From sequence record NC_054934.1: a DNA stretch of 64,000 bases. One strand, 5' to 3'. The first letter of the stretch is position 1; every line of letters begins with the position of its first letter. Both the position numbers and the translations under genes were made by a program. This stretch comes from Escherichia phage teqskov. Shown piece by piece: positions 2,543 to 63,398 of this stretch. Under the pieces are notes generated by a model. That model made no database searches. It was not told the DNA's origin and was given only the letters and a program-made list of their open reading frames with translations.

Positions 2543-4521
2543 TGTGATATAGGCTCCAAATCGATAGTTAAGTATTGTGGACGTAAGTCATTTTCAAATA
2601 CAATCAGTGAACCGTCGCGAGTAAAGATAACATCATCGGTTGGGTCAGAATATAATTCGATGGTCTGAACTTCAAATTTTTCAGATGTTAAATTAATTTT
2701 AGCGATATTCCAATAAATCACATCAGCTGGATAATTTATTTCACCGATAACATAGTATTTGTCGCGTCCATCAGAATTTGCTAATTTGTTAAAATCGTTG
2801 CCTGTATACGGCTGAATGTTTTCATTTTCTGTAACATCGCCAGAAGCAAATGGACCAATAATAACTTTACCAATTCCTTTAGAATCTCGGTCTGTTGATA
2901 CTATACGAACGTCATATAATACATCTTCTTCTAAACCAGTATCAGGATTTACAACCTTTCGTCCAGAATTAAATGAAAACGTATTAGATTCCATAGAACG
3001 ATCTTTTATTTGATTATTGTATTTAATACCTGCTTCAGGTGTTTTATAGAAGTTTTGTACTTCACGAACAATTTGAATTGTCGCTGATGAACCAATGATA
3101 GAATGATCTGCATCATCTACATATGTCAACATCTTAGACTTGGCAAAAGACGAGTTAAAAATTTCTACATCTTCGGTATAATAACGATCAATTTTATCAA
3201 TTATTTGACCTTCGAGCCACTGTTCGGATTCTTGCAGCTTATTTAAAGCATATGTGACTTTTAAATTAGTCTTAATAAAAAGATAATTAGGAGAAATAAT
3301 TGATGGCGTAATAGGAGCTAAATTATAGTCTTTGAGATAATTTTTAATATCTTCACGTTGCACAGTAGTTAAATACAATCCTGATTTAGGTTTAGCAGCA
3401 ATAAATGCATACCCAGGTTTAGTAGAATCAGTGAAAGTCTGAACAGCTTGAATAATAGAACCAAATCTCTCTGAAACGAATGTATCGTAGTCAGTCGCAG
3501 TTACGCAGCGTTGCTGGGTTTCGCGTTTAATAGTACCCAATTCGCGAATACGCTCAATATCTTCTGGATCACCGCCGCCATCTGCTCCGACAAAATCTGG
3601 GTCGTCGTTTGGATTTTCATTAATATTGATGACAGTTATATTTGTTAATGTATCTGCATATGAAAATCCGACTGCGCCATTCGCATCTGCACCGTTAGTA
3701 CTGATGTACTCAATAACAATCGTAGAGTTCTGGGTAGGTTTAAGACCTCCGATATAATTAGCGGTCAAAGCTCCTTCAGAAGCATTAACAGAAATTTCAC
3801 CTTCGCCAAAATAGAATTCAGTGTTTCCATCAATAGTTTCACGCATATAGTAAATCGTTGATGTTGAACCAGCATGAACCATTGACTTTCTTGTCCAGTT
3901 AATCCATTCCGCTCCATCAACATATAATTTAACCTGGTTTCTATCAATATTTTTATCATAAATGATAATAGGTGTTAATTTATCATAAATGATTTCAGTT
4001 CTTACTATACGTCCCTGGGCCAATTTTAAACGTGGAAAATATTGGTTATTTTTATCACGAATAGCAATAACGTCTTCGGTAGAAACGAAGTTATATGGAT
4101 TAACAGAAGTATCTTTTGCATATGCTAAAAAGCGAGTTCCGCGAGGAATTGTAATGTAATTCCTATTCAATGCGTCGGTGCATGTTAACATAATTTCGGT
4201 CTGCGCAGCGGATTTTGAAGTAGGTAAATATCCGTTATCTTGTGCAGCTTGAACAACTGAACTTCGTAAGTTAGCAGTACGCATAAAGCTTTCATACACA
4301 GCAGCATTACCAAACTGTTGAATGTACAACGTATTATAAGCCAAAAGGTCACACAGAACGTTTAATCTTGAGCCTTCAAAATCATAATCCAAAAATTCAT
4401 TTTGGCCATTAAGCCATTCAATGAGGTTTTGTTTTATTTCAGCAAACGTACCCCCGACGAATATCTCGGGAATAGCATTTGCTGTTCTTGTTAATTGATA
4501 ATTTACAGGGGTATTTGCCAT
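2539..4521 (-). CDS. 6: Baseplate wedge protein gp6
   Basis: 660 aa ORF, same length as T4 gp6; sits between 5.4 and 7 as in T4. Confidence 0.92.
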   Translation of the reverse strand: MANTPVNYQLTRTANAIPEIFVGGTFAEIKQNLIEWLNGQNEFLDYDFEGSRLNVLCDLLAYNTLYIQQFGNAAVYESFMRTANLRSSVVQAAQDNGYLPTSKSAAQTEIMLTCTDALNRNYITIPRGTRFLAYAKDTSVNPYNFVSTEDVIAIRDKNNQYFPRLKLAQGRIVRTEIIYDKLTPIIIYDKNIDRNQVKLYVDGAEWINWTRKSMVHAGSTSTIYYMRETIDGNTEFYFGEGEISVNASEGALTANYIGGLKPTQNSTIVIEYISTNGADANGAVGFSYADTLTNITVININENPNDDPDFVGADGGGDPEDIERIRELGTIKRETQQRCVTATDYDTFVSERFGSIIQAVQTFTDSTKPGYAFIAAKPKSGLYLTTVQREDIKNYLKDYNLAPITPSIISPNYLFIKTNLKVTYALNKLQESEQWLEGQIIDKIDRYYTEDVEIFNSSFAKSKMLTYVDDADHSIIGSSATIQIVREVQNFYKTPEAGIKYNNQIKDRSMESNTFSFNSGRKVVNPDTGLEEDVLYDVRIVSTDRDSKGIGKVIIGPFASGDVTENENIQPYTGNDFNKLANSDGRDKYYVIGEINYPADVIYWNIAKINLTSEKFEVQTIELYSDPTDDVIFTRDGSLIVFENDLRPQYLTIDLEPISQ

Positions 4522-4823: not shown

Positions 4824-5381
4824 TTATGGCCTCTCATACACATAGCTTCTCAATTTATTAGCCCAACGACTCCAATTTCCAACTATAGTTTTAGTATAAT
4901 TTTTAACGAGAGTTTTTCTTACTGGAGCAGGAGGATCCGTCGGTTCAGTAGTATCAGAAGATGACCTAGAATTACTGCCAGAACCTCCAGATTCACTTTG
5001 TTCTTGGTAGTCATATATTAATGTTACTTCGTAAGTGAATGTCTTCTGGAGATTTTGAGGAGCTTTCCACAAATACAACTGAGTATCAGAATCAGTAGGA
5101 AGTTCTTCCCATGAAGCAGCAGTTTTAAATTCATCGCCTAAACGATATTTCAACGCGTCATTTCCGAAACCAAATACAGATTCATATGTTCCATATAAGC
5201 GATTTTCTTCTACTAAAACCCCAGGAGTTTCTTCGTAACTAGTTATATTTATAGATACTAACGTTTCACCTGTTTCTAATTGAGCGGTAAAGGTGACGTC
5301 GATAGAAGAACCTTCCATGGATTCTCCTAAATCAGCGCTCATTGGAAGTATATTAGCCAATGTCAATCCTCGATCCATCAA
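4824..5381 (-). CDS. 5.1: Conserved hypothetical protein at the gene 5.1 position; exact start uncertain
   Basis: 185 aa ORF between gene 5 and 5.4; overlaps gene 5 end by 29 nt. Confidence 0.55.
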
Positions 5382-7080
5382 TTGTGTATTGACCAGATGA
5401 AATAGAACTCATAGATGCAATTTTTTCTGTCCAATCACCACCAACGTCCCAATCAACTGTCCCAGCAACTTTCCAAGAAAGATTTCCATTTACTGTATTA
5501 GTCTGATTTCCTTCAACTAAAGTGGTAGCATCTCCTTTAACTGTAATGTCAGCATTACCTTCAACTACAATAGTAACATTACCTTTAACTAGGATAGTTC
5601 CATTACCTTCAACCGTCTTAGTTTCATCGCCTCGAACAAATATCGTATTGCTTCCATCTATTTGGTGAAGACGATTATCCATGTTGTAATAAATTTCTGA
5701 TCCACCGACGTTAGTCTTTTTATCACCGGCTACCAAAAAATTACCATCAGCGTTGGTTATATCATACAAATTATCAACAGTTTTTCTTGTTCTTCTCCCT
5801 GACGGTGATACTTCTTCATAAGTTCCAGTTGGATGAACTAATCTATATCGTTCTTGCCCAGGGGTATCATCAAATTCCTGAATATGTCCACTTTCAGTTT
5901 CCATTGTATGCACATAAGGATATTCGCCTTTATATGAAGAAACTGGTTCTTTGAATAAAATTCTCGAGTCATTTGGAATAGGAGGGTCAGCAGGGTCAGA
6001 AGATTTAGTTACAGTCGCAGCCATTGCCGATAAAGACCTAGCTGGAGTTTTCACTTCAACACCATATGATTCCAAATTCCCCGTAAGAATAATCATGGTA
6101 ACACGGGATGCACGGCCTTTTGTTTGTTGATACCACAATGAATCACGACCGGCTTTATATGCTTTTTCCCAATCTCCTGCTAACATAGCAGTTAACATTG
6201 TGTTAAATTTAGCTACACCGCCAACCCCCATCTGAAATGCCATATTTTCTAATGCCATTTGACGAGAACGGTTGACAGCTTGCCAGACTGGTCCTACTTT
6301 AGAATGCGATTTAATGTCACGTTGCATATCAGCCAAATCACGCTCAAATAAAGTCGTCGCCTCTTCCATTGTAATAGAACCTGGATTTCCTGTAATTTCA
6401 CGACCAACTTGTTTTGATAAAACTTTATTAATTTGAGCCATATCACGAACTGGCTGCTTCATGATAAGATGACCAATACCAATTGTCGGATATCCTTCGG
6501 TATCCCAATAAACTTTTAATCTTAATCCTTCATCACGGCGAAGCATTTCAGCCATTGACATATTTGGATTATCATCAGTTGGAATCTCTGATAGTGGTCT
6601 ATCATCGGGATTTATTGCGGTGTCTAAGTTACTATCTTGAATAACATTAGAAGAGGAATCATATCCTACTTCTCCGCCTTGGTTTAATACGTTAGTATCA
6701 TTTCCTAAACGTCTAGGATACTGCCCAGTTGGGTCAGAAAATCCTTCAAGTCTATTCGGTTTTTCGCGAACTATTCCACCATACGTGCCAAGGACAATTC
6801 CGTTAGTTTTCCATTTGTCTAAAAAATGACCGTAAACTCTAGTTCCTTCTACCGGTCCAGTAACAGAACCTCCAATTCCTGACATTGCTGCAGAAGTTAT
6901 AGGTTGAATAACTGACATCCATGGTAATTTTTCAGTTGGAATACCCATTACATCACCTTGTGCTCTTTGAGGTGGATGCAGACCAACAACACGAACACGA
7001 ACACGACCTAATTTTAATGGGTCCATTCTATCTTCAACAACACCAACAAACCAATTAAGGTTATTACTTATCATTTCCAT
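5353..7080 (-). CDS. 5: Baseplate hub subunit and tail lysozyme gp5
   Basis: 575 aa as T4 gp5; internal lysozyme domain (LRLKVYWDTEGYPTIGIGHLI) paralogous to gene e; C-terminal VxGxxxxx beta-helix repeats. Confidence 0.95.
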   Translation of the reverse strand: MEMISNNLNWFVGVVEDRMDPLKLGRVRVRVVGLHPPQRAQGDVMGIPTEKLPWMSVIQPITSAAMSGIGGSVTGPVEGTRVYGHFLDKWKTNGIVLGTYGGIVREKPNRLEGFSDPTGQYPRRLGNDTNVLNQGGEVGYDSSSNVIQDSNLDTAINPDDRPLSEIPTDDNPNMSMAEMLRRDEGLRLKVYWDTEGYPTIGIGHLIMKQPVRDMAQINKVLSKQVGREITGNPGSITMEEATTLFERDLADMQRDIKSHSKVGPVWQAVNRSRQMALENMAFQMGVGGVAKFNTMLTAMLAGDWEKAYKAGRDSLWYQQTKGRASRVTMIILTGNLESYGVEVKTPARSLSAMAATVTKSSDPADPPIPNDSRILFKEPVSSYKGEYPYVHTMETESGHIQEFDDTPGQERYRLVHPTGTYEEVSPSGRRTRKTVDNLYDITNADGNFLVAGDKKTNVGGSEIYYNMDNRLHQIDGSNTIFVRGDETKTVEGNGTILVKGNVTIVVEGNADITVKGDATTLVEGNQTNTVNGNLSWKVAGTVDWDVGGDWTEKIASMSSISSGQYTIDGSRIDIG

Positions 7081-54010: not shown

Positions 54011-56707
54011 ATGAAAGAATTTTATATCTCTATTGAAACAGTCGGAAATAACATTGTTGAACGTTATATTGATGAAAACGGAAAGGAACGTACCCGTGAA
54101 GTAGAATATCTTCCGACTATGTTTAGGCATTGTAAGGAAGAGTCAAAATACAAAGACATCTATGGTAAAAACTGCGCTCCTCAAAAATTTCCATCAATGA
54201 AAGATGCTCGAGATTGGATGAAGCGAATGGAAGACATCGGTCTCGAAGCTCTCGGTATGAACGATTTTAAACTCGCTTATATCAGTGATACATATGGTTC
54301 AGAAATTGTTTATGACCGAAAATTTGTTCGTGTAGCTAACTGTGACATTGAGGTTACTGGTGATAAATTTCCTGACCCAATGAAAGCTGAATATGAAATT
54401 GATGCTATCACTCATTACGATTCAATTGATGACCGTTTTTATGTTTTCGACCTTTTGAATTCAATGTACGGTTCAGTATCAAAATGGGATGCAAAGTTAG
54501 CTGCTAAGCTTGACTGTGAAGGTGGTGATGAAGTTCCTCAAGAAATTCTTGACCGAGTAATTTATATGCCATTCGATAATGAGCGTGATATGCTCATGGA
54601 ATATATCAATCTCTGGGAACAGAAACGACCTGCTATTTTTACTGGTTGGAATATTGAGGGATTTGACGTTCCGTATATCATGAATCGCGTTAAAATGGTT
54701 CTCGGTGAACGTAGTATGAAACGCTTCTCTCCAATCGGTCGAGTAAAATCTAAACTAATTCAAAATATGTACGGTAGCAAAGAAATTTATTCTATTGATG
54801 GCGTATCTATTCTTGATTATTTAGATTTGTACAAGAAATTCGCTTTTACTAATTTGCCGTCATTCTCTTTGGAATCAGTTGCTCAACATGAAACCAAAAA
54901 AGGTAAATTACCATACGACGGTCCTATTAATAAACTTCGTGAGACTAATCATCAACGATACATTAGTTATAACATCATTGACGTAGAATCAGTTCAAGCA
55001 ATTGATAAAATTCGCGGGTTTATCGATCTAGTTTTAAGTATGTCTTATTACGCTAAAATGCCTTTTTCCGGTGTAATGAGTCCTATTAAAACCTGGGATG
55101 CCATTATTTTTAACTCATTGAAAGGTGAACATAAGGTTATTCCTCAACAAGGTTCGCACGTTAAACAGAGTTTTCCGGGTGCATTCGTATTTGAACCTAA
55201 ACCAATTGCTCGTCGATATATTATGAGTTTTGACTTGACGTCTCTGTATCCGAGCATTATTCGTCAGGTTAACATTAGTCCTGAGACTATTCGTGGTCAG
55301 TTTAAAGTTCATCCAATTCATGAATATATCGCAGGAACAGCTCCTAAACCGAGTGATGAATATTCTTGTTCTCCGAATGGATGGATGTACGATAAGCATC
55401 AAGAAGGTATCATTCCAAAGGAAATCGCTAAAGTATTTTTCCAGCGTAAAGATTGGAAAAAGAAAATGTTCGCTGAAGAAATGAATGCCGAAGCTATTAA
55501 AAAGATTATTATGAAAGGCGCAGGGTCTTGTTCAACTAAACCTGAAGTTGAACGATATGTTAAGTTCAGTGATGATTTCTTAAATGAACTATCGAATTAT
55601 ACTGAATCTGTTCTCAATAGTTTGATTGAAGAATGTGAAAAAGCGGCTACACTTGCTAACACAAATCAGCTGAACCGTAAAATTCTTATTAACAGCCTTT
55701 ACGGTGCTCTTGGTAATATTCATTTCCGTTACTATGATTTGCGAAATGCTACTGCTATCACAATTTTCGGCCAAGTTGGTATTCAGTGGATTGCTCGTAA
55801 AATTAATGAGTATCTGAATAAAGTATGTGGAACTAATGGCGAAGATTTCATCGCAGCAGGTGATACTGATTCGGTATATGTTTGTGTAGATAAAGTTATT
55901 GAAAAAGTTGGTCTTGACCGATTCAAAGAGCAGAACGATTTAGTTGAATTCATGAATCAGTTCGGTAAGAAAAAGATGGAACCTATGATTGATGTTGCAT
56001 ATCGTGAGTTATGTGATTATATGAATAACCGCGAGCATCTGATGCATATGGACCGTGAAGCTATTTCTTGCCCTCCACTTGGTTCAAAGGGCGTTGGTGG
56101 ATTTTGGAAAGCGAAAAAGCGTTATGCTCTGAACGTATATGATATGGAAGATAAGCGATTTGCTGAACCGCATTTAAAAATCATGGGTATGGAAACTCAG
56201 CAGAGTTCAACGCCTAAAGCGGTCCAAGAAGCTCTCGAAGAAAGTATTCGTCGTATTCTTCAGGAAGGTGAAGAGTCTGTCCAAGAATATTACAAGAACT
56301 TCGAGAAAGAATATCGTCAACTTGACTATAAAGTTATTGCTGAAGTAAAAACTGCGAACGATATAGCGAAATATGATGATAAAGGTTGGCCAGGATTTAA
56401 ATGTCCGTTCCATATTCGTGGTGTGCTAACTTATCGTCGAGCTGTTAGCGGTTTAGGTGTAGCTCCAATTTTGGATGGAAATAAAGTAATGGTTCTTCCA
56501 TTGCGTGAAGGAAATCCATTTGGTGACAAATGCATTGCTTGGCCGTCGGGTACAGAACTTCCAAAAGAAATTCGTTCTGACGTACTGTCTTGGATTGACT
56601 ACTCAACTTTGTTCCAAAAATCGTTTGTTAAACCGCTTGCAGGCATGTGTGAATCGGCTGGTATGGACTATGAAGAAAAAGCTTCGTTAGACTTCCTGTT
56701 TGGCTGA
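54011..56707 (+). CDS. 43: DNA polymerase gp43
   Basis: 898 aa; exonuclease and polymerase motifs (GDTDS); extensive match to remembered T4 gp43. Confidence 0.97.
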   Translation: MKEFYISIETVGNNIVERYIDENGKERTREVEYLPTMFRHCKEESKYKDIYGKNCAPQKFPSMKDARDWMKRMEDIGLEALGMNDFKLAYISDTYGSEIVYDRKFVRVANCDIEVTGDKFPDPMKAEYEIDAITHYDSIDDRFYVFDLLNSMYGSVSKWDAKLAAKLDCEGGDEVPQEILDRVIYMPFDNERDMLMEYINLWEQKRPAIFTGWNIEGFDVPYIMNRVKMVLGERSMKRFSPIGRVKSKLIQNMYGSKEIYSIDGVSILDYLDLYKKFAFTNLPSFSLESVAQHETKKGKLPYDGPINKLRETNHQRYISYNIIDVESVQAIDKIRGFIDLVLSMSYYAKMPFSGVMSPIKTWDAIIFNSLKGEHKVIPQQGSHVKQSFPGAFVFEPKPIARRYIMSFDLTSLYPSIIRQVNISPETIRGQFKVHPIHEYIAGTAPKPSDEYSCSPNGWMYDKHQEGIIPKEIAKVFFQRKDWKKKMFAEEMNAEAIKKIIMKGAGSCSTKPEVERYVKFSDDFLNELSNYTESVLNSLIEECEKAATLANTNQLNRKILINSLYGALGNIHFRYYDLRNATAITIFGQVGIQWIARKINEYLNKVCGTNGEDFIAAGDTDSVYVCVDKVIEKVGLDRFKEQNDLVEFMNQFGKKKMEPMIDVAYRELCDYMNNREHLMHMDREAISCPPLGSKGVGGFWKAKKRYALNVYDMEDKRFAEPHLKIMGMETQQSSTPKAVQEALEESIRRILQEGEESVQEYYKNFEKEYRQLDYKVIAEVKTANDIAKYDDKGWPGFKCPFHIRGVLTYRRAVSGLGVAPILDGNKVMVLPLREGNPFGDKCIAWPSGTELPKEIRSDVLSWIDYSTLFQKSFVKPLAGMCESAGMDYEEKASLDFLFG

Positions 56708-56720
56708 TAGAATAAATCTA

Positions 56721-56741
56721 GGGACCTCCGGGTCCCTTTTT
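56721..56741 (+). terminator. Rho-independent terminator
   Basis: gggacc-tccg-ggtccc then TTTTT. Confidence 0.75.
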
Positions 56742-56824
56742 CATACAAGTAATATAAATCTATACTTATGAAAAACAGATGATTCTGGACCTTTAGAATT
56801 CCCTAAAAAATTTTTCACAAAACT

Positions 56825-56855
56825 GTTTACAAGACTGTTCCTCTGTGGTATTATA
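56825..56855 (+). promoter_or_regulatory. T4 early promoter, near-identical to the copy at 31888
   Basis: tttttcacaaaactGTTTACaagactgttcctctgTGgTATTATacaactatcaactactgatacag. Confidence 0.65.
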
Positions 56856-56891
56856 CAACTATCAACTACTGATACAGATTTGGAGAATAAA

Positions 56892-57128
56892 ATGAAAATT
56901 GTTATGGGATGCTTAGCAGTTTGTTTAGTTGCATTAGCAGCAGTTCCATTTGTTAGTGTTGAAAATGATACTCAACCTGTGATTGAATCTAGCACCGTTA
57001 TTCACACTAATGGTAAAATATCAGTTAAAATTGATGATAATCTTCATGTGAATACAAATGGATCTTTAGGTGTGCAAATGGGTAATACCTGCATAAGCAC
57101 TACTGGAGTAATTACTACTTGCATTTGA
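56892..57128 (+). CDS. Small membrane or secreted protein
   Basis: 78 aa from ATG 56892; hydrophobic N-terminus; GGAGA SD in the conserved leader. Confidence 0.45.
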   Translation: MKIVMGCLAVCLVALAAVPFVSVENDTQPVIESSTVIHTNGKISVKIDDNLHVNTNGSLGVQMGNTCISTTGVITTCI

Positions 57129-57138
57129 GGAAATTATT

Positions 57139-57519
57139 ATGAAAATCGCTATTTTGGTTATTGCATTAGGTCTTACTGGTTGTGTAGCTCAAGGACCGGT
57201 AGTAAATCAGTCTGATGTAGGAAAAATTGTAAACTGTTCAAGCAAATTTTATAATCCTAATGTCAAGTGTTATAAAGAAGCTCCAAAGCAAACAGTCGAA
57301 CAAATGCAGGCGAATTTTGACGAAGCTATTCGTCCAGATGAATCTGCTCAAGCATATCGTAATTCTGATGTAATTACACGCGAAGAAAAAATTGAAAACT
57401 ACTGCGCCGAAATTTGGGCTAATTGGGCTAATAATTACCAATGGCGTACTGGTAAAAATGCTCCGATGGAGTATGTAGTGAATTCTTATAATTCATGTGT
57501 AAAAAATTTGACTAAGTGA
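57139..57519 (+). CDS. Putative lipoprotein
   Basis: 126 aa; signal peptide with lipobox LTGC; GAGGAAA SD. Confidence 0.55.
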   Translation: MKIAILVIALGLTGCVAQGPVVNQSDVGKIVNCSSKFYNPNVKCYKEAPKQTVEQMQANFDEAIRPDESAQAYRNSDVITREEKIENYCAEIWANWANNYQWRTGKNAPMEYVVNSYNSCVKNLTK

Positions 57520-57526
57520 GGAAAAC

Positions 57527-57778
57527 ATGGAAACTTTAGTAGCAGGTTCAATTTTTATGGTTTTAGTTTCAGGCGTGTTGGCTATTATTATATACATGCT
57601 TCCATGGTTTATCGCCTTGATGCGTGGGTCAAAATCGACAGTAGGAATCTTTTTCACATCTTTACTGTTTAACTGGTCAATTATTGGTTGGTTTATTACA
57701 TTTATTTGGTCAATTGCGGGTGAAACTAAAAAATCTGTACAGCAAAATCAAGTAATTATCATCAGAGAGAAGGAATGA
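57527..57778 (+). CDS. imm: Superinfection immunity membrane protein Imm
   Basis: 83 aa, two TM helices; size and position as T4 imm. Confidence 0.75.
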   Translation: METLVAGSIFMVLVSGVLAIIIYMLPWFIALMRGSKSTVGIFFTSLLFNWSIIGWFITFIWSIAGETKKSVQQNQVIIIREKE

Positions 57779-57924
57779 AAAGCAAAATTTTAGCAGTATT
57801 GCTTTTAATCTTGATGATTATAATAAGTATATACTATAGCGTAACAGTTCCTCTTATGATTCCGCCACTTATTATAGGTTGGAGTTTATTACTGTTACAA
57901 GTTAAATATGAATGCATCAATTGA
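57775..57924 (+). CDS. Small hydrophobic membrane peptide (49 aa)
   Basis: ATG overlaps imm stop (ATGA); below the ORF-track cutoff. Confidence 0.35.
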   Translation: MKSKILAVLLLILMIIISIYYSVTVPLMIPPLIIGWSLLLLQVKYECIN

Positions 57925-57931
57925 GGTTTAA

Positions 57932-58672
57932 ATGATTAACGATTATATGACAGTTGAAGAAATCCGTCTTGATTTGGGTCTTGCATTAAAGGAAAAAGAT
58001 TTCGTAATTGATAAAACCGGTGTTAAAACTATTGAAATTATTGGTGCATCATTTGTAGCAGATGAACCTTTTATTTTTGGCGCTCTTAATGATGAATACA
58101 TTCAGCGTGAACTTGAATGGTATAAATCTAAGAGCTTGTTTGTTAAAGATATTCCAGGTGAAACACCAAAGATTTGGCAGCAGGTAGCATCTTCTAAAGG
58201 CGAAATTAATTCGAATTATGGTTGGGCCATCTGGTCAGAAGATAACTATGCCCAATATGATATGTGTTTAGCTGAACTTGGTCAAAATCCTGATTCTCGA
58301 CGTGGTATCATGATTTATACTCGTCCATCTATGCAGTTTGACTACAACAAAGACGGCATGTCAGATTTCATGTGTACGAATACAGTACAGTACCTGATTC
58401 GTGATAAGAAAGTTAATGCAGTAGTAAGCATGCGTTCAAATGACGTGGTCTTCGGATTCCGTAATGATTATGCATGGCAAAAATACGTATTAGATAAATT
58501 AGTATCTGATTTGAATGCAGGCGATTCAACTCGTCAGTATAAAGCAGGTTCTATTATATGGAATGTTGGAAGTCTTCATGTATATTCTCGTCATTTTTAC
58601 TTGGTTGATCATTGGTGGAATACTGGCGAAACTCATATTGTGAAAAAAGATTATAACGGTGAGTGGAAATGA
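57932..58672 (+). CDS. 42: dCMP hydroxymethylase gp42
   Basis: 246 aa; thymidylate-synthase-like fold motifs; matches remembered T4 gp42. Confidence 0.9.
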   Translation: MINDYMTVEEIRLDLGLALKEKDFVIDKTGVKTIEIIGASFVADEPFIFGALNDEYIQRELEWYKSKSLFVKDIPGETPKIWQQVASSKGEINSNYGWAIWSEDNYAQYDMCLAELGQNPDSRRGIMIYTRPSMQFDYNKDGMSDFMCTNTVQYLIRDKKVNAVVSMRSNDVVFGFRNDYAWQKYVLDKLVSDLNAGDSTRQYKAGSIIWNVGSLHVYSRHFYLVDHWWNTGETHIVKKDYNGEWK

Positions 58673-59511
58673 TTCAATTCGTAATTCCGAGCTATCAACG
58701 TGTAGGGGCAGTTTCTGCCCTTGATATGTTTCCGACTGATTATGAACCTCATATCGTAGTACGTGAACATGAAGAAAAAGCTTATTATGACGCCTATGGG
58801 TCTAGAGCTAAAATTATAACTATTCCTGATGATGTAAACGGAATTGCCGGTACTCGTAAAGCAATTACTGATATGTATGCAGGTCAACGAATCTGGATGA
58901 TTGACGATGATACTACTATTCGTATGAGTTCAATGCGAAAAAGAGATGATCGTCGTTGCGTAGATAAAGTCAATCAATTGACTCGTGAACAGTTCTATGA
59001 ATTGATTCAATATGTTGAGGATGCCATGGATTGTGGGTATTATCATGGCCATGCTCGTCTACCTATTTTTAAAATTACTTCATCTTGGGGTAATTATCGT
59101 GAAAATTCATATGGATTCACGAATACATGGTATGACCTTGGAAAACTTACTACAGAACAAATTGGGTATGGAAAAATTGATTTATGCGAAGATATGTATG
59201 CATTTCTCAATTTAATTAATCAAGGTTATCCGCATTTGGCCTTGTTCAAATATCTAGTTGTATCTGGAAAAGCACAAGCTCCTGGCGGGTGCAGTTCAAT
59301 TCGCAGTAATTCTAAACATAATAGAGCGCTTGAGCAAATCAATATAGAGTTTCCAGAGCAAGCTCGTTGGAAAACTTCTAATATTGAAAAACGAAAATCG
59401 TTGGGTGAAGAAGACGAGCCATTAAAGGTTCTTCGCATGTGTGTTTCGCGCAAAGAAAAATCAGAAGCATTTCATAAGTTTAATGCTATTCATCCAATAG
59501 CAGTTGATTAA
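58669..59511 (+). CDS. Putative GT-A glycosyltransferase (DxD motif) at the beta-gt locus; not T4 beta-gt-like
   Basis: 280 aa from ATG 58669 (ATGA overlap with 42); IWMIDDDTTI DxD motif; T4 has the 351 aa beta-gt here. Confidence 0.5.
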   Translation: MIQFVIPSYQRVGAVSALDMFPTDYEPHIVVREHEEKAYYDAYGSRAKIITIPDDVNGIAGTRKAITDMYAGQRIWMIDDDTTIRMSSMRKRDDRRCVDKVNQLTREQFYELIQYVEDAMDCGYYHGHARLPIFKITSSWGNYRENSYGFTNTWYDLGKLTTEQIGYGKIDLCEDMYAFLNLINQGYPHLALFKYLVVSGKAQAPGGCSSIRSNSKHNRALEQINIEFPEQARWKTSNIEKRKSLGEEDEPLKVLRMCVSRKEKSEAFHKFNAIHPIAVD

Positions 59512-63104: not shown

Positions 63105-63398
63105 ATGAAAAAATTTATCTTTGCCACAATTTTTGCTTTAGCTTCTTGTGCTGCTCAGCCTGCTATGGCAGGTTATGATAAAGATTTGTGCGAATGGTCT
63201 ATGACTGCGGATCAGACTGAAGTTGAAACTCAAATTGAAGCAGATATTATGAATATCGTTGAGCGCGATCGCCCTGAAATGAAAGCTGAAGTGCAAAAAC
63301 AACTTAAGTCTGGTGGTGTAATGCAGTATAATTATGTTCTGTATTGCGATAAAAACTTTAATAACAAAAATATCATCGCTGAAGTGGTAGGTGAATAA
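63105..63398 (+). CDS. sp: Spackle (61.3), periplasmic inhibitor of the gp5 lysozyme
   Basis: 97 aa with signal peptide; size and position as T4 sp. Confidence 0.75.
   Translation: MKKFIFATIFALASCAAQPAMAGYDKDLCEWSMTADQTEVETQIEADIMNIVERDRPEMKAEVQKQLKSGGVMQYNYVLYCDKNFNNKNIIAEVVGE

Follow-up and report, generated by a model that had tools for sequence, protein, structure and literature searches.

Superinfection immunity has been known in phage T4 since the 1970s. The 64,000-nucleotide stretch of Escherichia phage teqskov that was analysed here (sequence record NC_054934.1; hereafter the window) carries the immunity gene imm as one of four same-strand open reading frames (ORFs) that the ORF list places between the DNA polymerase gene 43 (54011-56707) and gene 42 (57932-58672). 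This arrangement raises the question of whether the small neighbours of imm, which are imm.1 and two genes called here p78 and p49, share in its work. In the literature searched we found no mechanism for the block that Imm places on DNA entry, no exclusion phenotype for Imm.1, p78 or p49, and nothing on the function of Imm.1; nor do the CRISPRi-ART and HIDEN-SEQ papers mention imm.1 in their main texts. The 2020 paper on the structure of Spackle names only Spackle and Imm for superinfection exclusion by T4, and its introduction calls the step of DNA delivery that involves the tail tube and the inner membrane ‘less well-understood’ (PMC7677548). A second strongly constrained gene for an early exported protein, located beside imm in six genera as imm.1 is, could reveal an overlooked component of exclusion.

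Layout and signals of the interval

The features of the interval and its surroundings are listed here by position in the window.

56720..56742, + strand: terminator-like hairpin and T-run 3' of gene 43, AGGGACCTCCGGGTCCCT then TTTTT
56826..56854, + strand: early sigma-70 type promoter; -35 TTTACA, 17-nt spacer, TG-extended -10 TATTAT
56892..57128, + strand: p78, 78 aa; SD GGAG; phrog_4189
57139..57519, + strand: imm.1, 126-aa predicted lipoprotein; DUF5481, phrog_1754
57527..57778, + strand: imm, 83-aa superinfection immunity membrane protein; PF14373, phrog_1039
57775..57924, + strand: p49, 49-aa very hydrophobic membrane protein; phrog_3610
57932..58672, + strand: gene 42 (dCMP hydroxymethylase), from the ORF list and the annotations of relatives; 7 nt past p49
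63105..63398, + strand: sp (spackle), Pfam T4_Spackle E 1.3e-44, phrog_1586; 5.2 kb downstream

The hairpin and T-run that follow gene 43 are kept in T4, T2 and T6, and in the record of phage Ge15 this element is annotated as a terminator. The promoter scan gives the early promoter 10 of 12 matches together with the TG, and a G at 56825 makes its -35 element GTTTACA. An earlier note on this DNA had placed a conserved early promoter at 56825, and the element is indeed found at 56826-56854 with a sequence that is conserved in T4, T2 and T6. Each of the four ORFs has an SD of the GGAG/GAGG type. The gaps between them are 7-10 nucleotides, with imm.1 ending 7 nucleotides upstream of imm, and the stop codon of imm overlaps the start codon of p49 in the sequence ATGA. 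A TTG at 56880 overlaps the SD of p78 and is unlikely to be the start of that gene.

The four ORFs are genuine genes under purifying selection, not chance ORFs. The pN/pS of imm.1 (0.04) shows a constraint as strong as that on imm (0.06), whereas p78 and p49 have values of 0.35 and 0.34. The ORFs are intact wherever they are present, except in phage CT01, where p78 is a fused fragment. Every one of the four products has an export or membrane signal, as had been predicted of this group. The interval is best explained as the T-even imm region, transcribed as one immediate-early unit from the promoter at 56826-56854, which lies downstream of the gene 43 terminator. Such a unit would put four small proteins into the envelope of the freshly infected cell.

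The earlier note had described the interval as an envelope-protein module larger than imm alone. Four ORFs are present as stated, but they are not new: the genes of the interval are already catalogued, with imm.1 in the T4 RefSeq record and all four in relatives. By megablast the region matches 508 phage records, of which 453 span 80% or more of it and 395 are 95-99% identical to it, and a scan of IMG/VR adds seven loci that all belong to Tequatrovirus or Mosigvirus. By tblastn, Imm has matches in 1009 phage records and DUF5481-type Imm.1 in only 655, and divergent members of phrog_1754 account for part of this gap. Searches of the interval proteins with PADLOC and NCBIfam yielded no meaningful matches. 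The comparison also flags gaps in the T4 reference record, where the p49 ORF is unannotated and the product name given to imm.1, ‘iduronate sulfatase’, finds no support in any search that was run.

The predicted lipoprotein Imm.1 and its place beside imm

Imm.1 matches PF17578/DUF5481 with 237.6 bits (cut-off 27; E 1.7e-71), with residues 22-124 aligned to positions 1-103 of the 103-position profile, and it matches phrog_1754 with E 3e-44. The T4 protein (UniProt P18057; PF17578) is the product of the same gene, shares 98% amino-acid identity and is likewise encoded directly upstream of imm, and its lipobox, LAGC, is one residue apart from the LTGC found here. Comparison with the T4 imm region had been proposed in the earlier note; imm.1 and an intact p49 are both found there, but the p78 slot is empty. 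T4 and T6 lack the p78 gene, and therefore imm.1 of T4 takes the SD that serves p78 in the present phage. Both the RNA and the protein of T4 Imm.1 are classed as ‘early’ in time-resolved omics data, which is the same class as Sp (PMC9697503 supplements).

The N-terminus of Imm.1, MKIAILVIALGLTGC, has K2 and Cys15 and conforms to a PROSITE-type lipobox rule ([LVI][ASTVI][GAS]C with the Cys at 15-35, K/R in the n-region and an uncharged h-region). Among ATG-initiated ORFs of at least 50 amino acids in the window, 3 of 174 pass this rule. They include both Imm.1 and Sp, the latter of which we take to be soluble with a cleaved signal. Rule-based lipoprotein calls can mislead, because Sp passes the rule yet is described as a periplasmic protein (PMC7677548). 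Moreover, two members of the Imm.1 family have an AHA-type signal instead of the lipobox Cys, and thus export, not lipidation, is the invariant feature of the family.

Six cysteines in addition to that of the lipobox had been counted in the earlier note, but there are four: Cys33, Cys44, Cys89 and Cys120. In the alignments Cys89 and Cys120 are invariant, while Cys33 and Cys44 are either both present or both absent, a pattern that is compatible with periplasmic disulfides. The protein has all of the family residues that are invariant in both alignments (N32, Y38-N39-P40, K43, Y45, Y73-R74, S76, C89 and C120). Lipidation of Imm.1 at Cys15 is probable. With Val rather than Asp at residue +2, the protein is predicted by the E. 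coli rule to be sorted by Lol to the outer membrane. The protein would then reside in the inner leaflet of that membrane, with a domain of ~110 residues facing the periplasm and putative disulfides joining C89 to C120 and probably C33 to C44.

An AF2 model of Imm.1 has a pLDDT of 66 and is confident only in the C-terminal helical hairpin (residues 81-125). A Foldseek search against the PDB had no hit below E 1, a search against BFVD found only the protein's own family, and no significant match came from profile searches against PDB sequences. Because the model is weak and fold relatives are lacking, no mechanism can be read from the structure. The family also appeared to be tiny when a word-indexed search gave three near-identical clusters and phmmer against 1.84 billion representatives gave six. 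PHROG profiles then tied Imm.1 to longer lipoproteins. This result supersedes an hhalign comparison of the mature DUF5481 proteins with the long lipoproteins, which had reached 78% probability over the N-terminal 40 columns only.

The neighbouring Imm protein is a two-segment membrane protein that matches Pfam PF14373 (Imm_superinfect) with 58.1 bits (cut-off 27.9) as well as phrog_1039, ‘immunity to superinfection’, and it is 96-100% identical among Tequatrovirus loci. By tblastn, imm.1 adjoins imm in all 24 of the Imm.1-bearing loci that were examined, and members of phrog_1754 extend this association to four further genera. In total, phrog_1754 lipoproteins are found next to imm in six genera of Tevenvirinae and in three gene orders. 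The order is imm.1-imm in Tequatrovirus, with adjacency also seen in four divergent metagenomic lineages. In Mosigvirus RB69 the order is 61.4-imm.1-imm-sp, with a GTTTACA promoter in front of each gene. Dhakavirus Bp7 and Gaprivervirus VR25 have the order imm-p49-lipoprotein, and Gelderlandvirus STML-198 and Jiaodavirus Kp122 and KPV15 have lipoprotein-imm. The lipoproteins of these genera match phrog_1754 over the full length (E 1.5e-51 to 2.3e-15). A point against the link to Imm is that Imm-like genes lacking an adjoining lipoprotein gene occur in Bragavirus phiP4-3, Jerseyvirus SS3e and Obolenskvirus Scipio. The persistence of this neighbourhood despite rearrangements agrees with the choice of the lipoprotein as leading candidate in the earlier note.

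The p78 and p49 genes

The product of p78 matches phrog_4189 over its full length (E 4e-30). There are 14 protein clusters and 324 phage records that carry it, all of Tequatrovirus type. The protein had been described as hydrophobic. The ORF and its export signal are present, but only the signal-like residues 1-24 are hydrophobic, and they are followed by a polar part that is predicted as beta strands and includes Cys67 and Cys77. The lipobox rule fails for p78, as candidate cysteines are found only at positions 7 and 11 (VMGC and LAVC), and a signal peptidase I site between ALA (residues 14-16) and the A that follows is plausible. Variants with a 7-amino-acid duplication gain LAAC or LAVC at Cys18, and in one source a variant of this type bears the name ‘Lipoprotein’.

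The slot that holds p78 is empty in T4 and T6, where there is a clean 247-bp indel bounded by an 8-nucleotide ATGAAAAT repeat that arises from the two start regions. In T2 the slot holds an unrelated 83-amino-acid protein with no signal peptide. Thus the view of the interval as an early envelope module holds for exported or membrane products behind an early promoter, but p78 is not integral to the imm module. It is an exported accessory protein that occupies a variable, promoter-proximal slot, and it may act in the periplasm as a separate, strain-variable early envelope factor. Cross-exclusion between the members of T-even therapy cocktails could be influenced by early envelope genes that, like p78, vary from strain to strain.

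The p49 gene corresponds to 42.1 of RB32 and VR7. The 49-amino-acid membrane peptide proposed earlier is encoded at 57775-57924 and is very hydrophobic; it matches phrog_3610 over residues 3-49 (E 1.2e-24) and is found in 746 phage records. The alignment of ten p49 sequences has twelve invariant columns, and P26, M28-I29-P30, W36, L41-Q42, K44, C47 and N49 are invariant across genera. With gp42.1, RB69ORF054c and phrog_3610 the protein shares the C-terminal motif P-x-MIPT...W..L.LQ.K(Y/F)(E/Q)C(F/I)N. The ORF is intact in T4 (positions 3228-3377 of locus L001, minus strand), and it is left without annotation in T6 and VR25 as well as in T4. Upstream of p49, Tequatrovirus has imm. Mosigvirus, Winklervirus and Kagamiyamavirus instead have a gene labelled arabinose-5-phosphate isomerase, which in Mosigvirus is labelled hypothetical. 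The Mosigvirus gene keeps its position downstream of gene 43 though imm is elsewhere, and in the Winklervirus and Kagamiyamavirus loci p49 has the same position and no imm is seen in the stretch read. The conserved tiny membrane protein p49, which probably forms a hairpin in the inner membrane, may be a separate early factor; its position would go with gene 43, downstream of which it lies, and not with imm.

Two other interpretations of these small ORFs deserve mention. It is scarcely credible that p49, p78 or both are not genes and that the p49 region is kept as regulatory DNA upstream of gene 42. The T4 RefSeq record does leave a 153-bp gap between imm and gene 42 without annotation, and p49 contains a MotA-box-like TGCTTTT that is followed 13 nucleotides on by TATAAT. 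We do not claim a MotA middle promoter, as the element fails the strict pattern TGCTTYA. However, the p49 protein is conserved with invariant residues in at least seven lineages while its N-terminal half and its DNA diverge, its ORF is intact in every locus, the ATGA coupling is kept behind differing upstream genes, the pN/pS value given above points to selection on the protein, and PHROG families exist for both p49 and p78. For p78 itself, we consider it very unlikely that the protein is a periplasmic decoy akin to the C-terminal beta-helix of the gp5 tail spike, disturbing the puncturing device of superinfecting phages. The idea draws on a weak match of the p78 profile to a ‘baseplate central spike protein’ of solved structure (residues 499-543; E 3.1), on a BLASTP alignment of p78 residues 21-66 with residues 496-541 of the phage's own gp5 (5353-7080, minus strand; E 0.032 in a single comparison), and on an AF2 model with one helix and six short strands. 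Against it, the scores are not significant, since 7.3% of shuffled sequences reach them, the likeness may stem from a common composition rich in N, G, T and V, and the confidence of the model is low (pLDDT 56).

Imm.1 as a candidate partner of Imm and comparison with known systems

Judged from association only, Imm.1 is a reasonable candidate partner of Imm. We regard as evenly poised between right and wrong the fuller proposal of a four-protein early envelope operon in which Imm.1 acts with Imm while p49 and p78 are separate factors. Together with the inner-membrane protein Imm, Imm.1 might form the periplasmic or outer-membrane-side component of immunity or envelope protection, and it might help to keep the DNA of an incoming tail from crossing the inner membrane. 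A broader proposal, which we put forward as a tentative and rather unlikely one, is that the phrog_1754 lipoproteins supply Imm with its missing partner, in the outer membrane or the periplasm, and that the two form a two-membrane exclusion device that is conserved across enterobacterial Tevenvirinae. If true, this would explain how an inner-membrane protein diverts the DNA of an incoming tail into the periplasm. In lineages where p49 follows imm, p49 might be a third component of the device, located in the inner membrane. The link between Imm.1 and Imm rests on conserved neighbourhood, which partly reflects shared descent rather than independent events. Lu and Henning reportedly found in 1989 that cloned imm alone already confers immunity and, if so, Imm.1 is not strictly required. 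A more specific contact between the N-terminal Imm.1 motif C-x-x-QG-x-x-V-x-A-x-x-VGK-x-R and the C-terminal ‘VIIIRE’ tail of Imm was dropped, because the motif is missing in Mosigvirus, STML-198, P0004 and P0008.

The main competing explanation, which we judge to be a real though lesser prospect, is that Imm.1, p49 and p78 do not work with Imm but serve other ends in the envelope early in infection, and owe their nearness to imm only to an ancestral early region for secreted proteins. They could set the timing of lysis or act in lysis inhibition, stabilise the envelope, counter host defences that are located there, or remodel host transport. The position of p49 after gene 43 where imm is elsewhere or not seen, the variable content of the p78 slot in T4, T6 and T2, and the lack of any family or fold match that indicates a mechanism all favour this explanation. 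It accounts less readily for the imm.1-imm pair, which in Mosigvirus has moved together to the sp locus and in Dhakavirus and Gaprivervirus has survived changes of order, and for the fact that lipobox ORFs are rare, with ~2 real ones in this 64-kb window. Another explanation is that Imm.1 is a receptor-masking lipoprotein comparable to T5 Llp or phi80 Cor, which would bind the receptor in the outer membrane from its periplasmic face and block the adsorption of later phages. As with Llp, a lytic phage makes Imm.1 early, and the protein is predicted to be a lipoprotein of the outer membrane. However, T2 uses FadL/OmpF, T4 uses OmpC/LPS and T6 uses Tsx as receptors, yet Imm.1 is 97.6-100% identical among T2, T4, T6 and the present phage, which makes receptor masking by this protein unlikely. 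T-even exclusion also acts after adsorption, and the Pfam, PHROG, NCBIfam and PADLOC matches reveal no sequence or profile similarity to the Llp or Cor families. Hence we consider this explanation to be highly improbable.

A partnership of Imm.1 with Imm can be set beside several known systems. The lipoproteins Llp of T5 and Cor of phi80 and N15 resemble Imm.1 in being phage lipoproteins with a predicted outer-membrane location that are produced before the progeny are released. Imm.1 differs from both in that it is always paired with the gene for an inner-membrane protein and in that its sequence does not track receptor specificity.

Arbiol, Comeau and Krisch are said to have described in 2010 the promoter-early/stem-loop (PeSL) mobile cassettes of T4-type phages. 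The p78 gene is similar to such cassettes because its ORF lies behind a stem-loop and an early promoter and its presence varies among near-identical genomes, some of which lack it or carry a replacement. Unlike them, it has no second copy of the promoter and stem-loop at its other boundary, where only the 8-nucleotide repeat is found.

Imm.1, p78 and p49 have no sequence or fold similarity to Imm or Sp, and the Spackle profile PF25676 is matched by none of the four interval proteins. Nevertheless, Imm.1 is early and exported, as are Imm (PF14373) and Spackle (PF25676), the known exclusion proteins of T4. In RB69, imm.1, imm and sp are contiguous, whereas in the present phage sp is located 5.2 kb downstream of the imm.1-imm pair.

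The interval between genes 43 and 42

The window is a segment of a T-even (Tequatrovirus) genome, and a megablast query with 56700-57950 matched 508 phage records, with at least 80% query cover in 453 and 95-99% identity in 395. The top match is Escherichia phage vB-Eco-KMB22 (98.5% identity). Four plus-strand ORFs fill the space between genes 43 and 42.

ending at 56707, gene 43 (DNA polymerase), flanking the interval
56720-56742, terminator (hairpin and T-run), upstream of the ORFs
56826-56854, promoter (TTTACA-17 nt-TG-TATTAT), upstream of the ORFs
56892-57128, plus strand, ORF for p78
57139-57519, plus strand, imm.1, the 126-aa ORF
57527-57778, plus strand, imm
57775-57924, plus strand, ORF for p49
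starting at 57932, gene 42 (dCMP hydroxymethylase), flanking the interval

Each ORF is preceded by a GGAG/GAGG-type ribosome-binding site, the ORFs are spaced 7-10 nucleotides apart, and the p49 start shares an ATGA with the imm stop. With the G at 56825, the -35 element reads GTTTACA, which is typical of T4 early promoters, and the promoter is kept in T4, T2 and T6. These features confirm the claim of the earlier note that imm and three further ORFs lie behind a conserved early promoter. The interval is an early operon encoding exported and membrane proteins.

All four ORFs are real genes. Across ten Tequatrovirus loci, pN/pS summed over pairs, which are phylogenetically non-independent, is 0.04 for imm.1, 0.06 for imm, 0.35 for p78 and 0.34 for p49. 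Every product has a profile match: Pfam DUF5481 (E 1.7e-71) and phrog_1754 for Imm.1, PF14373 for Imm, phrog_4189 for p78 and phrog_3610 for p49. The ORFs are intact wherever they are present, with the exception of a fused p78 fragment in a rearranged record of Shigella phage CT01 (OK018184). There (locus L014, 909-1746), the fragment is joined in frame to a duplicated segment carrying the promoter and the imm.1 5' end, and the chimeric ORFs are annotated as 101 aa and 179 aa. Recombination could account for this, as could an artefact of assembly.

The gene next after gene 42 (58663-59511; phrog_842, Pfam TAGT) encodes a beta-glucosyl-HMC-alpha-glucosyltransferase like that of T2 and T6, unlike the beta-glucosyltransferase of T4. 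It probably starts at ATG 58669, in an overlap with the stop codon of gene 42, and not at GTG 58663. In the whole window, the MotA-box pattern TGCTTYA-N10-13-TANNNT occurs 14 times versus 2.8 expected, with 12 of the 14 on the plus strand, a pattern consistent with genuine T4 middle promoters on the early/middle transcription strand.

The p78 slot and p49

Comparison with the T4 imm region, as the earlier note had proposed, finds imm.1, imm and p49 in T4, whereas p78 is absent. Both imm.1 and imm are annotated in T4, and the 153-bp gap between imm and gene 42 holds an intact 49-aa p49 ORF (T4 locus L001, 3228-3377, minus strand) that is 90% identical to p49 of the window. This ORF is left unannotated in NC_000866, T6 (MH550421) and VR25, and is named 42.1 in RB32 and VR7.

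A clean 247-bp indel accounts for the lack of p78 in T4 and T6. It is bounded by the 8-nucleotide sequence ATGAAAAT, with which both p78 and imm.1 begin, and therefore T4 imm.1 takes over the p78 ribosome-binding site. The corresponding slot of T2 (locus L016, 1037-1288) holds an unrelated 83-aa ORF lacking a signal peptide, a type present in 38 records; p78 is present in 324 records, all of Tequatrovirus type. Thus, the slot between the promoter and imm.1 (56892-57138) is polymorphic, holding p78, the unrelated ORF or nothing, and p78 is a cassette in this variable promoter-proximal position rather than a constant component of an imm module.

The description of p78 as a 78-aa hydrophobic protein holds only for residues 1-24, which resemble a signal peptide and offer a plausible cleavage site (ALA|A); the remainder is polar, with six short beta strands predicted in a low-confidence model. 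The signal codons (56910-56950) vary among phages: CLVALA(A/V) is duplicated in units of 7 aa (21 bp), ID repeats also occur, and the resulting proteins are 78, 80, 85 or 89 aa long. In some of these the duplication yields a lipobox that passes the rule (LAAC or LAVC, Cys18), and one database labels such a variant 'Lipoprotein'. The mature part (56952-57089) resembles tail spike protein gp5 (5353-7080, minus strand) in the C-terminal beta-helix of the latter, weakly and not significantly (BLASTP E 0.032 in one comparison, shuffle p 0.07), and its match to a solved baseplate central spike is likewise not significant (E 3.1). These likenesses are a lead only.

At the protein level, p49 shows conservation in at least seven T4-type lineages, its homologues sharing the motif P-x-MIPT...W..L.LQ.K(Y/F)(E/Q)C(F/I)N. 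The protein is hydrophobic nearly end to end, and with its mid-sequence prolines this fits a helical hairpin. In Tequatrovirus, two metagenomic lineages, Dhakavirus and Gaprivervirus, the homologues come after imm. Those of Mosigvirus, Winklervirus and Kagamiyamavirus follow another gene, annotated as arabinose-5-phosphate isomerase in two of three records, and still lie downstream of gene 43 with the ATGA overlap kept. Therefore p49 is tied to genome position and not to imm.

Imm.1 and its linkage to imm

The earlier note had assigned Imm.1 an LTGC lipobox and six further cysteines. The lipobox is present, with Cys15, but there are four further cysteines (33, 44, 89 and 120). There are six representatives of this very small DUF5481-type family among 1.84 billion proteins in an exhaustive sequence search, and a profile search gives eight clusters. 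Invariant in the alignment are N32, YNP, K43, Y45, YR-S, C89 and C120. C33 and C44 co-occur or are both missing, as expected of putative disulfide partners in the periplasm. Five of seven members carry a lipobox and the other two have an AHA-type signal in its place, so export is a constant feature of the family. Asp is never found at +2, and the E. coli Lol rule thus predicts sorting to the outer membrane. The confident part of the AF2 model is restricted to a C-terminal helical hairpin (81-125), and the PDB and BFVD hold no fold relatives outside the family itself.

ORFs with a lipobox are uncommon in this genome; in the 64 kb, three ORFs pass the lipobox rule: Imm.1, Sp and one that is probably spurious. 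Sp (Spackle; 63105-63398), the product of the other known T4 exclusion gene, does so with FALASC in its signal region, though its structure paper calls it simply periplasmic (PMC7677548), which advises caution on rule-based lipoprotein calls. T4 imm.1 (L001, 3637-4014) carries the RefSeq name 'iduronate sulfatase', copied to other records such as JLBYU31 ('putative iduronate sulfatase'); Pfam, PHROG, NCBIfam and fold searches give this name no support.

A DUF5481 gene lies immediately upstream of imm in every lineage that carries one. In Mosigvirus RB69 the pair has moved out of the 43-42 region and now lies between 61.4 and sp, where imm.1, imm and sp (locus L004, 2435-3236) are contiguous, each with its own GTTTACA...TAnnnT early promoter, and form a cluster of three exported early proteins. 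Further genera also place a lipoprotein near imm. In Gaprivervirus VR25 it has 167 aa and lies two genes downstream of imm (first flagged by tblastn), the order is 43-imm-p49-lipoprotein in Dhakavirus (Bp7), and it is 43-lipoprotein-imm-42 in Gelderlandvirus (STML-198) and Jiaodavirus (Kp122, KPV15). These lipoproteins, which Pfam DUF5481 fails to reach, are full-length phrog_1754 matches (E 1.5e-51 to 2.3e-15) and are Imm.1 homologues. No lipoprotein is encoded beside the Imm-like genes of Bragavirus phiP4-3, Jerseyvirus SS3e and Obolenskvirus Scipio. Imm.1 is a conserved, strongly constrained gene neighbour of imm.

Possible role of Imm.1

Published omics supplements (PMC9697503) place T4 Imm.1 in the early class for both RNA and protein. 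We give about an even chance to the proposal that Imm.1, a predicted periplasm-facing lipoprotein, would cooperate with Imm, a protein of the inner membrane, to provide superinfection immunity or to protect the envelope. Reportedly (Lu and Henning, 1989), imm confers immunity by itself; if so, Imm.1 would be at most an enhancer or specificity factor. The chief rival, somewhat less likely, is that Imm.1, p49 and p78 perform other early envelope jobs, and it would make the recurrent linkage of Imm.1 to imm historical.

None of the four genes is new: all had been annotated before, and no further member or variant comes from the window. The new element is the cross-genus pairing that we infer between imm and a phrog_1754 lipoprotein, of which we found no discussion in the literature searched, and which makes a simple experiment worthwhile. 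Among known exclusion lipoproteins, Llp of T5 and Cor of phi80 mask receptors. T2, T4 and T6 use different receptors, yet their Imm.1 proteins share 97.6-100% identity, which makes a role of this type unlikely for Imm.1.
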